Source: Gemmatimonadales bacterium
Lineage (GTDB): Bacteria > Gemmatimonadota > Gemmatimonadetes > Gemmatimonadales > GWC2-71-9
Direction of reading: 5' to 3'
NCBI GenBank assembly: GCA_052389555.1
Contig: JBQTHV010000109.1
Coordinates: 3,262 to 67,261, forward strand
Length of the DNA stretch: 64,000 nt
In this document: piece by piece, positions 35,177 through 36,601 of the stretch
How positions within the stretch are numbered: the first letter of the stretch is position 1
Layout of the letters: each line of letters starts with the position of its first letter
The notes under the pieces: generated by a model
Database searches by the model: none
Seen by the model: only the letters and a program-made list of their open reading frames with translations
What the model was told of the DNA's origin: nothing
Program-made: the position numbers and the translations under genes

Positions 35177-36601
35177 TCAGACGAGCGCTCGGGCCCGCTC
35201 CGCAAGCTGCGCGGCTTCCCGCTCAGTCGGCGCCTCGACAATCAGACGAACGATCGGCTCGGTTCCCGAAGGTCGCAGGTGGATCCACCGGTCCGGCCAC
35301 GCCATACGCAAACCGTCGCGTTCATCGACAGTGGCCTCCGGGAAAGCGGCCCTGAGCTTCGTGTAGGTCTGCTGCAAGTCGGCTTCCCGGGGCAGCTTAG
35401 CTTTGAGAATCCGGTAGCGTGCAGCAGCCGAAACCAGACCTGAAACCGTACGGCCGTCGCGGGCCAGGTACTGCAAGATCAACGCCACCCCCAGGGGGGC
35501 ATCACGCCCGGTGTGAAGCGCCGGGAGGATGACCCCACCATTCCCTTCTCCCCCGATAACCGCCCGCTCCACTGCTATCGCCTTGGCGACGTTGGACTCG
35601 CCGACGGGTGCACGAACGAAGCGAGCACCGCAGTCTCGCGCGGCGTCTTCGACGACCAGGCTCGTGGAAAGGTTGGCGACGACGACAGGTTGCCGGTCGG
35701 CCGAAAGACCGGACGGCAGGTAAGTCCTCTGCGGTTCAACATCCTGCCGTCCTGCCGCCCTGCCGTCCTGCAACCGAGCCCCAAGTACCGCGCGCACCGC
35801 AAACGCCAGCGTGTAGTCCTCCCCGATCGGCTCCCCGGTTTCGTCCACCAGTGCCAGGCGATCACCGTCGGGATCGATGGCCATTCCCAGGTGGGCGCCG
35901 GTACGGCGGACCAGGCCGCCCAGCTCGCCCAGGTTCTCGGGAAGCGGCTCGGGTTCCCGTGGAAACCGCCCATCGGTTTCGAGGTTCAGACCCAACACTT
36001 CGCAGCCGAGGCGACGCAACAGGGGCGGAATAACGGCACCGCCGACCCCCCGGACACAGTCCAGCGCGACCCGGAAGCCCCTGGTTCGGATGACCTCGGC
36101 ATCGATCAAGGGAAGCGCAAGGATGGCATCGAGGTGCCGCTCGATGGCATGGGGATCGAAACGCACGGTGCCAATCCCAGCCCAGCCTTTCCGCGCGGGC
36201 CCGCCTTCGGTCTCGGCAACCGCGCGGACTTCGCCAACCGCCTTGGCATCCAGGAAGATCCCGTCCGGCCCGACCAGCTTGAGCGCGTTCCATTCGACCG
36301 GGTTATGGCTCGCGGTGAGAATGAGACCGGCGCCCGCCTGGTGGTGCTCTACCGCGAGCTGCCCGGTGGGGGTGGGGACCAGGCCAAGGTCGATGACCTC
36401 GCATCCCACGGAAAGGAGTCCGGCGGTTGCCGCGCGCGCGAACATCTCGCCGCTGGTTCGCGCGTCGCGGCCCACGACGACCCGACTCTTGCCCTCCCTC
36501 GCCGCGCGCGCACCGAGGGCCGCGGCCCAGCGAGCCACAAACTCAGGCGTGAGATCGGTTCCCACAATCCCGCGGATTCCGGAGGCGGAGATGACGAGCA
36601 T
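35177..36601 (-). CDS. glmM: Phosphoglucosamine mutase / phosphohexomutase with a repeat-derived internal insertion
   Basis: TASHNP, DPDGDR, GGEGNGG, RPSGTEP. Adjacent to glmS. Confidence 0.88.
   Translation of the reverse strand: MLVISASGIRGIVGTDLTPEFVARWAAALGARAAREGKSRVVVGRDARTSGEMFARAATAGLLSVGCEVIDLGLVPTPTGQLAVEHHQAGAGLILTASHNPVEWNALKLVGPDGIFLDAKAVGEVRAVAETEGGPARKGWAGIGTVRFDPHAIERHLDAILALPLIDAEVIRTRGFRVALDCVRGVGGAVIPPLLRRLGCEVLGLNLETDGRFPREPEPLPENLGELGGLVRRTGAHLGMAIDPDGDRLALVDETGEPIGEDYTLAFAVRAVLGARLQDGRAAGRQDVEPQRTYLPSGLSADRQPVVVANLSTSLVVEDAARDCGARFVRAPVGESNVAKAIAVERAVIGGEGNGGVILPALHTGRDAPLGVALILQYLARDGRTVSGLVSAAARYRILKAKLPREADLQQTYTKLRAAFPEATVDERDGLRMAWPDRWIHLRPSGTEPIVRLIVEAPTEREAAQLAERARALV
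35711..35771. repeat. In-CDS 8-mer element (CCTGCCGT x~4 plus one inverted copy) in glmM
   Basis: Encodes LQDGRAAGRQDVEPQRTYLPS. Confidence 0.8.

Follow-up and report, generated by a model that had tools for sequence, protein, structure and literature searches.

The glmM-type phosphohexomutase gene on a 64,000-nucleotide (nt) stretch of a Gemmatimonadales genome (GenBank assembly GCA_052389555.1, contig JBQTHV010000109.1, positions 3,262 to 67,261 of the forward strand; this whole stretch is called the window, and its numbering is used below) carries an extra segment in the middle of its reading frame. We read this segment, with a probability of roughly 0.78, as one copy, inserted in frame, of a gene-less hairpin repeat that is dispersed in the genome and whose arms are mirror-image arrays of the octamer GGCAGGAC. 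The copy would be translated, and a working GlmM would tolerate it as a disordered loop on its surface. It would have no function of its own, and would be retained because this loop is one of the few places where the enzyme accepts extra residues. The assembly (G000) comprises 3.2 Mb in 202 contigs with 67% G+C, and is 93.5% complete.

The gene, the element and the parts of the element are:

35177..36601, minus strand: glmM-type phosphohexomutase gene (P0001), 474 amino acids (aa) (open reading frame, ORF, and its translation; TIGR03990; Pfam)
35688..35775, minus strand: repeat hairpin element, an 88-nt imperfect palindrome (inverted repeat; fold; build shared with about 16 family hairpins)
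35743..35775, minus strand: 5' arm in gene sense, G-rich, GGTTGCAGGACGGCAGGGCGGCAGGACGGCAGG (Tandem Repeats Finder, TRF, array; direct repeats)
35721..35742, minus strand: hairpin loop, 22 nt, sense ATGTTGAACCGCAGAGGACTTA, encoding about VEPQRTY (sequence; inverted-repeat search; fold)
35688..35720, minus strand: 3' arm in gene sense, C-rich, CCTGCCGTCCGGTCTTTCGGCCGACCGGCAACC (inverted-repeat search; congener alignment)

The insert in GlmM

The protein reads FAVRAVLGA-RLQDGRAAGRQDVEPQRTYLPSGLSADRQ-PVVVANLSTS, with 29 extra residues (276-304, DNA 35690-35776). In gene sense the DNA of the element is GGTTGCAGGACGGCAGGGCGGCAGGACGGCAGG-ATGTTGAACCGCAGAGGACTTA-CCTGCCGTCCGGTCTTTCGGCCGACCGGCAACC, which can be written as GGTTGC-(AGGACGGC)n-loop-decayed inverted array-GCAACC. 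TRF reports an 8-nt array at 35742-35771 with 3.8 copies of GCAGGACG (90% matches, score 53), and in an inverted-repeat search the 10 nt at 35711-35720 are a perfect inverted copy of 35759-35768, beyond which the 3' arm is decayed; over their whole 33 nt the arms, which lie 22 nt apart, are 76% complementary. A first-pass annotation of this DNA had described a repeat-derived insertion of about 30 residues, encoded by an 8-mer array with one inverted copy, and these results confirm it. The 5' arm, which differs from the family consensus by a single mismatch, encodes about (A)RLQDGRAAGRQD. The loop sequence ATGTTGAACCGCAGAGGACTTA is unique to the glmM copy, the loops of other family members being unrelated in sequence. 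The insert peptide follows the DNA unit read in all three frames, and has no conserved residues.

Folded by itself, the exact 88 nt form one hairpin of -47.3 kcal/mol, against -32.0 +/- 3.3 for shuffles (z -4.68; 0 of 200 as good); the significance is limited to the exactly delimited element, for z is only -1.2 once 38 nt of flank are added. The unit has GG tracts only, with no G-tract of three or more, and the predicted structure is a hairpin. The window has 4 copies of a two-unit 15-mer (at most 2 mismatches), a count reached by 0 of 100 shuffles; 0.61 would be expected. Searching Rfam at the gathering threshold gave a tRNA (19515-19596) as the sole match in the window, with none at the insert; at E<=1 the insert has two chance-level matches to hairpin families (E 0.27 and 0.39), far below gathering scores.

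The product is, as judged by profile and motifs, a GlmM-type mutase, with its substrate specificity predicted. It scores 472.4 bits against TIGR03990 (archaeal-type GlmM, NCBIfam; curated cut-off 439), and all four PGM_PMM Pfam domains are present in its 474 aa. The phosphoserine loop TASHNP, the metal loop DPDGDR, the sugar loop GGEGNGG and the phosphate loop RPSGTEP are all there, and are invariant among 101 homologues. No other gene in the assembly exceeds the cut-off of a GlmM model; the sole paralogue (on contig C147) is PgmG-like and falls below it. An open frame, a full set of mutase motifs and the lack of a second gene at the cut-off agree with the earlier suggestion that the insertion is tolerated.

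In an AlphaFold2 model from the 101 homologues (mean predicted local distance difference test, pLDDT, 91.6; predicted template modelling score, pTM, 0.91), residues 281-300 are the sole internal stretch below pLDDT 60 (block means 57 and 51), a low-confidence coil that sits after helix 264-282 and before strand 306-310. The nearest solved structures are archaeal phosphomannomutases/phosphoglucomutases (PMM/PGM), and the model superposes on Pyrococcus PMM/PGM 1wqa with TM-scores of 0.86/0.90. In domain III, the insert is predicted to lengthen one helix and to form a floppy coil where the first helix leads into the first strand, in line with the surface loop of domain 3 proposed in the first pass; the fold outside the insert and the catalytic motifs are intact in the model. 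GlmM is the one protein in which the structural position of an in-frame repeat was examined.

A dispersed repeat family

Over the whole 3.2-Mb assembly TRF finds 3,180 non-overlapping arrays, with a sharp excess at periods 7 (773), 8 (403) and 9 (611). The unit ACGGCAGG, which equals GCAGGACG, makes 33 arrays. A recurring build is seen, consisting of GGT(T/G/A)GC, (AGGACGGC)n, a loop, (GCCGTCCT)n and GC(A/C/T)ACC, so that the end motifs of the family are GGTNGC...GCNACC; the loops (13-57 nt, 22 nt in glmM) are different at every locus. About 16 members are convergent hairpins, lying on either strand and always with the G-rich array first.

The two-unit 16-mer GGCAGGACGGCAGGAC (GGCAGGAC twice, at most 1 mismatch) has 61 matches in G000, against 0 and 2 in the same-genus genomes G004 and G081, and 0-10 in each of nine other genomes. 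The GlmM loops of these two congeners are 10-11 aa long (GAAGKRPAPPP in G081, ARRTPGPQPT in G004), and in a DNA alignment 63-66 nt of the element, covering the G-rich array, the hairpin loop and the perfect inverted copy, have no counterpart in them. With the unit family absent or rare in both congeners and their loops this short, there is a net 63-66 nt (21-22 codons) more in this lineage. That the octamer array and its inverted copy belong to a dispersed family, in whose absence the congeners have short loops, bears out the proposal of an element insertion. The GGCAGGAC family has expanded in this lineage, with the glmM copy as part of the expansion. At its 3' end the element reads ...CGGCCGACCGGCAACC, similar to ...CGGCCCGCAACC at this position in G004; the 3' arm may end in sequence left from the ancestral loop, or the G004 sequence may be the remnant of a lost hairpin.

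Most copies of the family have no spanning ORF. The GGCAGGAC unit is found in frame in CarB (peptide AGRQDGKTAG...PAVLPSGGPAA), a radical-SAM protein and a beta-lactamase-fold protein, a related octamer of different unit in DnaE, and further units in GcvP, SucA and a molybdopterin oxidoreductase (proteins named by eye); Pfam confirms the CarB, DnaE, radical-SAM and beta-lactamase-fold hosts. The in-frame arrays or hairpins of CarB, DnaE, the radical-SAM protein, the beta-lactamase-fold protein, GcvP and SucA are at C36:19546-19654, C129:33091-33168, C129:26356-26470, C36:52900-52989, C17:18691-18769 and C68:20824-20906.

Peptides that recur among the in-frame repeats include AGRQDGKTAG...LPSGRLAVLP and PSAERRAPSAE.

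With a period of 8 nt the three frames are read in turn, and a stop codon anywhere in the cyclic unit would therefore fall in frame at every third unit. GGCAGGAC and its complement are stop-free in all six frames, and read as GRQDGRTA-type peptides on one arm and LPSxRPxV-type peptides on the other. Among period-7/8 families, those with a stop on one strand have 3-4% of their arrays inside coding sequence, and those stop-free on both strands 20-32%, where coding sequence is called by a crude codon log-odds gene model on ORFs of at least 100 aa, stop to stop. The most abundant family, AATAGCC (145 arrays, TAG on one strand), has 0 inside genes. This pattern fits wide landing of arrays together with selection against gene-breaking copies.

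The GlmM loop across the Gemmatimonadales

We aligned 120 Gemmatimonadales homologues (67-76% identity). Their only internal length-variable site is the loop, whose variable stretch has 27 different lengths (0-49 residues), no other internal indel exceeding 6 residues; the reading frame is kept through the loop in every homologue, and the alignments of many relatives split at residue ~275. The first-pass statement that only a few residues separate the two flanking motifs holds for the solved archaeal relatives (6 in 1wqa, 32 here) but fails within the protein's own family, in which long loops are frequent. Close homologues often have a loop of comparable length, yet they encode it by repeats and hairpins of their own and not by ordinary sequence, so the case that the first pass named as refuting its reading, a similar loop that lacks the repeat, does not arise as worded. 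The long loops are encoded, at this one codon position, by hairpins built of other 7- or 8-nt units. Approximately 45% of the homologues, both congeners included, have no hairpin in the loop, and many short loops contain solo arrays of 2-4 units. Long loops being common in the family, the insert is no single-protein oddity; on the sequences compared, the loop site is a family-wide hot spot.

Whole loop regions of the long versions fold at about -45 to -120 kcal/mol, and delimited hairpins of other units at -51 to -63 kcal/mol (z -5.7 to -11). The unit GGTANGTC occupies the loop in a clade of five assemblies, with arms mostly paired (whole loop -45 to -71 kcal/mol; three delimited hairpins with z -8 to -11), and a loop hairpin of the heptamer GCTCGGC reaches -120 kcal/mol. 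Other long-loop arms are GGAAGGAC / GGTAGGAC, GGCGGACC and a CCTCCCC-type palindrome.

In all three genomes tested, the unit in the loop is the genome's own abundant unit and is rare elsewhere: (i) in G000 it is GGCAGGAC; (ii) in G045 it is GGGCAGTC, with 52 matches in that genome and 0-1 elsewhere; (iii) in G082 it is GGCGGGCA, with 188 matches there, 27 in its congener and 0-6 elsewhere. At the CarB site, G000 and G081 have hairpins that differ in unit, and G004 has a remnant; no hairpin was present in 8 of 9 other genera sampled, the site not having been located in the ninth (G086).

In a midpoint-rooted tree of the 120 homologues, built with the loop left out, some clades share a loop type and are interspersed with short loops. 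The arms do not co-vary perfectly, as one position of the unit is often mismatched along an entire arm, which suggests that homogenisation is faster within an arm than between arms. Rewriting of a hairpin that stays at the site and repeated insertion into one permissive or targeted site would both fit these observations.

PF05635 cassettes

All 22 genes of the PF05635 family (23S_rRNA_IVP, a four-helix bundle) that were examined in four genomes lie between convergent inverted arrays. Six of six are so flanked in G000, each with its own unit, and 16 of 16 in G081, G045 and G082 together. The cassettes of G000 are located at:

C48:9332-9911: PF05635 cassette
C111:19011-19614: PF05635 cassette
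C11:364-897: PF05635 cassette
C108:24736-25369: PF05635 cassette
C153:3539-3850: PF05635 cassette
C15:49181-49700: PF05635 cassette

The units of two of these head larger families in the genome, AATAGCC (the 145 arrays above) and AGCTATC (41), and the octamer arms of one cassette, GGTAAGAC/GGTAGGAC, come near the glmM unit. The C87 cassette of G045 carries ...CAGTCGGGCAGTCGG... and ...GTCCGACCGTCCGAC... as its arms, and these match both arms of the GlmM-loop hairpin of the same genome, asymmetry included; in G082 no PF05635 cassette with GGCGGGCA arms was found. The glmM element itself has a 22-nt loop without an ORF, so no PF05635 ORF lies between its arms. The density of period-7/8 arrays in three congeners is 21.5, 4.0 and 0.5 per 100 kb for 6, 2 and 0 PF05635 genes, respectively, a comparison of only three points on samples of ~400 kb that assembly fragmentation may bias.

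From the array flanks of PF05635 genes and the arm match in G045, the gene-less hairpins, that of glmM included, look like satellites derived from such cassettes; the synteny is observed, and from it we infer the causal link. We further put forward, as a tentative and rather doubtful proposal, a transposase-less hairpin system in Gemmatimonadales, in which the autonomous form would be a PF05635 (Avd-like) gene between convergent arrays and the unit would be written, copied or homogenised at resident sites, including sites in essential enzymes.

Two other candidates were rejected. Mobilisation of the kind known for repetitive extragenic palindromes (REPs) and their associated tyrosine transposases (RAYTs) was set aside, as no Y1 transposase (RAYT, PF01797) was found in the 93.5%-complete assembly by searches whose controls matched. 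A telomerase-like writer, or one like the reverse transcriptase of diversity-generating retroelements, was also discarded: the sole reverse transcriptase gene of the assembly (C10:828-2171, on a 2.9-kb contig) looks like the group II intron maturase type, as judged by eye from its motifs.

Weighing the explanations

Several points weigh against reading the segment as a dispersed hairpin that is simply tolerated. Hairpins persist at one codon position across many genera, beyond simple neutral tolerance. The 93.5%-complete G000 assembly has no PF05635 cassette with GGCAGGAC arms, the nearest being GGTAAGAC/GGTAGGAC. Preservation of the arms is unequal, with 1 mismatch in the 5' arm against ~8 of 33 in the 3' arm; given this, and the likeness of the 3' end (...GCAACC) to a congener's short loop, the insertion itself may cover only ~66 nt, with part of the 88-nt palindrome arising by chance. 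The fractions of arrays inside genes depend on gene calls made with our own crude codon-usage model. The exact protein was found in one contig only, and we infer that the insert is translated, that the enzyme is active and that the palindrome is correctly assembled.

A selected function of the segment is unlikely. It could work in the mRNA, by making ribosomes pause between domains II and III or by tuning glmM-glmS expression, or in the protein, as a partner-binding loop, and hairpins at exactly this codon position in many genera (some with z -5.7 to -11), at the sole variable internal site of the protein, and with mostly paired arms throughout the five-assembly GGTANGTC clade, are what such a function would lead one to expect. 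However, the length of the variable stretch differs widely (0-49 residues), ~45% of the homologues have no hairpin, the peptide lacks conserved residues, the G000 arm has decayed to 76% complementarity, and like elements occur in unrelated proteins and mostly between genes.

Growth of the array in place, by replication slippage of loop codons at a slippage-prone spot, is somewhat less probable still. It is difficult to reconcile with 33 arrays of the unit with shared end motifs in G000, a family absent from the two congeners, or with a loop unit that is the genome-wide unit in three of three genomes and, in G045, matches a PF05635 cassette in both arms; moreover, slippage alone does not make an inverted arm, yet one is present. 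Hypervariability of the loop in the 120 homologues and the many short loops with solo arrays of 2-4 units are more readily explained by a local origin, as are the resemblance of the conserved right flank CCCGTCGTCGTCGCC to the CCGTC core of units, the G045 array that runs seamlessly into this flank, and the likeness of the 3' end of the G000 element to a congener's loop.

We give little credence to an artefact, in which the palindrome would stem from a misassembled metagenome contig. Short-read assemblies are prone to errors at repeats and palindromes, and the protein is known from a single contig, but the extra DNA is in frame (+63/66 nt relative to the congeners) with the gene intact on both sides, and analogous hairpins occupy the same site in independent NCBI and JGI assemblies.

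Intervening sequences of rRNA are excised without religation, which would destroy an mRNA. Removal of the segment before the mature protein, as intervening RNA or as an intein-like peptide, is very unlikely on sequence grounds, for although PF05635 cassettes with similar arms resemble the 23S rRNA intervening sequences excised at the stem (abstract of PMC4990558), no Rfam family matches the insert beyond the two chance-level hits, its 29 aa carry no intein motifs and are far too short for an intein, and neither this gene nor any homologue loses its reading frame across the element, a constraint that applies only if the element is translated.

Comparison with described repeats

Rickettsia palindromic elements (RPEs) and intragenic GTAG/CGTC REPs (Di Nocera et al. 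2013, PMC3733652) are likewise small dispersed palindromes, in frame in conserved proteins and translated, at places that the fold tolerates. Different REPs are even found at about the same recB site in two Xanthomonas species (PMC3733652). The glmM element shares with RPEs its dispersed multicopy, hairpin-forming and in-frame nature, a likeness of build; given its tandem-array arms and its different phylum, kinship in sequence with the RPE-1 to RPE-8 consensus sequences is not expected. REPs have short stems (5-13 bp) with a GTAG or CGTC tag at one end (PMC3733652, Table 1), whereas the glmM element has 33-nt arms of tandem octamers and ends GGTNGC/GCNACC, with CGTC inside every unit and not as an end tag. 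It further differs from both RPEs and REPs in its copy-specific loops, a unit that differs between congeneric genomes, the lack of a RAYT and its phylum, Gemmatimonadota.

Repeats of similar build are described in the excerpts of two papers used here. G-rich heptamer repeats of Xanthomonas and Nostoc form convergent pairs on opposite strands, 70-75 of them in Xanthomonas (Rehm et al. 2015, PMC4692102), and Geobacter metallireducens has paired tandem-repeat sites and GGGACCG x4 elements, with 21 and 8 pairs (Aklujkar et al. 2009, PMC2700814); in Xanthomonas and Geobacter the repeats lie mostly near ORF ends, some inside genes. Common to the glmM element, Xanthomonas GGGAATC and the Geobacter class 2/3 sites, as those excerpts present them, are ~3-5 copies of a 7-9-nt unit in convergent pairs. 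The Xanthomonas and Nostoc repeats have GGG tracts and are described there as G-quadruplex-capable (PMC4692102), unlike the glmM unit with its GG tracts only. Neither set of excerpts links the repeats to a permissive loop of an essential enzyme, to genome-specific units at a persisting site or to PF05635.

ORF-containing intervening sequences of 23S rRNA (S23p / PF05635; Coxiella IVS, PMC4990558) place a four-helix-bundle gene within stem-forming inverted repeats. The PF05635 cassettes found here resemble them in having the gene between inverted arms, and their arrays are of the same kind as those of the glmM hairpin. The glmM element, by contrast, is ORF-less and in an mRNA, and its excision is not expected. 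As far as our searches reached, a persistent site in an essential enzyme, genome-specific units at orthologous sites and an association with PF05635 are not described in the literature.

The glmM-glmS locus and other arrays in the window

33330..35159, minus strand: glmS (glutamine-fructose-6-phosphate aminotransferase), 609 aa, starting MCGIVGY (ORF)
36602..36677, minus strand: intergenic spacer 5' of glmM, another tandem-repeat hairpin (TRF rows 36605-36639 and 36645-36675; sequence)
18768-18907, 19603-19717, 24648-24736, 29318-29441, 32084-32204, 43945-44104, 55502-55681, 57589-57682 and 61424-61514: further convergent array pairs

The glmS gene lies directly downstream of glmM in the same orientation, and at homologous loci GATase_6/7 and SIS domains follow glmM. 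G+C by codon position is flat in glmM (0.75 / 0.51 / 0.75) compared with glmS (0.69 / 0.45 / 0.87), and the antisense frame of glmM is open over 387 codons. Upstream, a repeat hairpin fills all 76 nt between the stop of an HD-domain gene and the glmM ATG; in gene sense it consists of a G-rich arm GGGTGAGCGGTAAGCGGGGAGCGGTAAGAGGG and then (CCTCTCA)x5, leaving just TTTCAGTC before the start codon, with no visible Shine-Dalgarno sequence. Close to the glmS 3' end, at 33223-33254, there is a 14-mer array (CAGGAGGTAGTAAG x2.3), whose unit is that of the PF05635 cassette arms on contig C15 (GGAGGTAGTAAGCA x3.1). At least nine more convergent pairs of 7-8-nt arrays occur in the window, e.g. AGACGGAC x4.4 / TCTGTCCG x7.4 and GGCTATT / CCAATAG, one of them directly after the tRNA at 19515-19596.

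Implications

In-frame selfish palindromes are textbook knowledge only for Rickettsia. Here a Rickettsia-like outcome would be reached via a differently built repeat, across an order of abundant soil bacteria, in GlmM, CarB and DnaE. Such inserts inflate loop lengths and break profile alignments, and an 8-nt unit within an essential gene is a frameshift hazard. Hairpins in many genera at one GlmM codon, each with the unit of its own genome, point to recurrent targeting or in-place rewriting, and ordinary transposition followed by neutral decay explains the pattern at this site poorly.

The association of PF05635 genes with the arrays offers candidate machinery for the repeats, and a possible function for a widespread orphan family. 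If the PF05635 hairpin system proposed above is real, each cassette would specify one 7-8-nt unit, orthologous hairpins would change unit in concert with the active cassette, and PF05635 proteins would be the specificity factor of an unrecognised mobile or self-renewing repeat.

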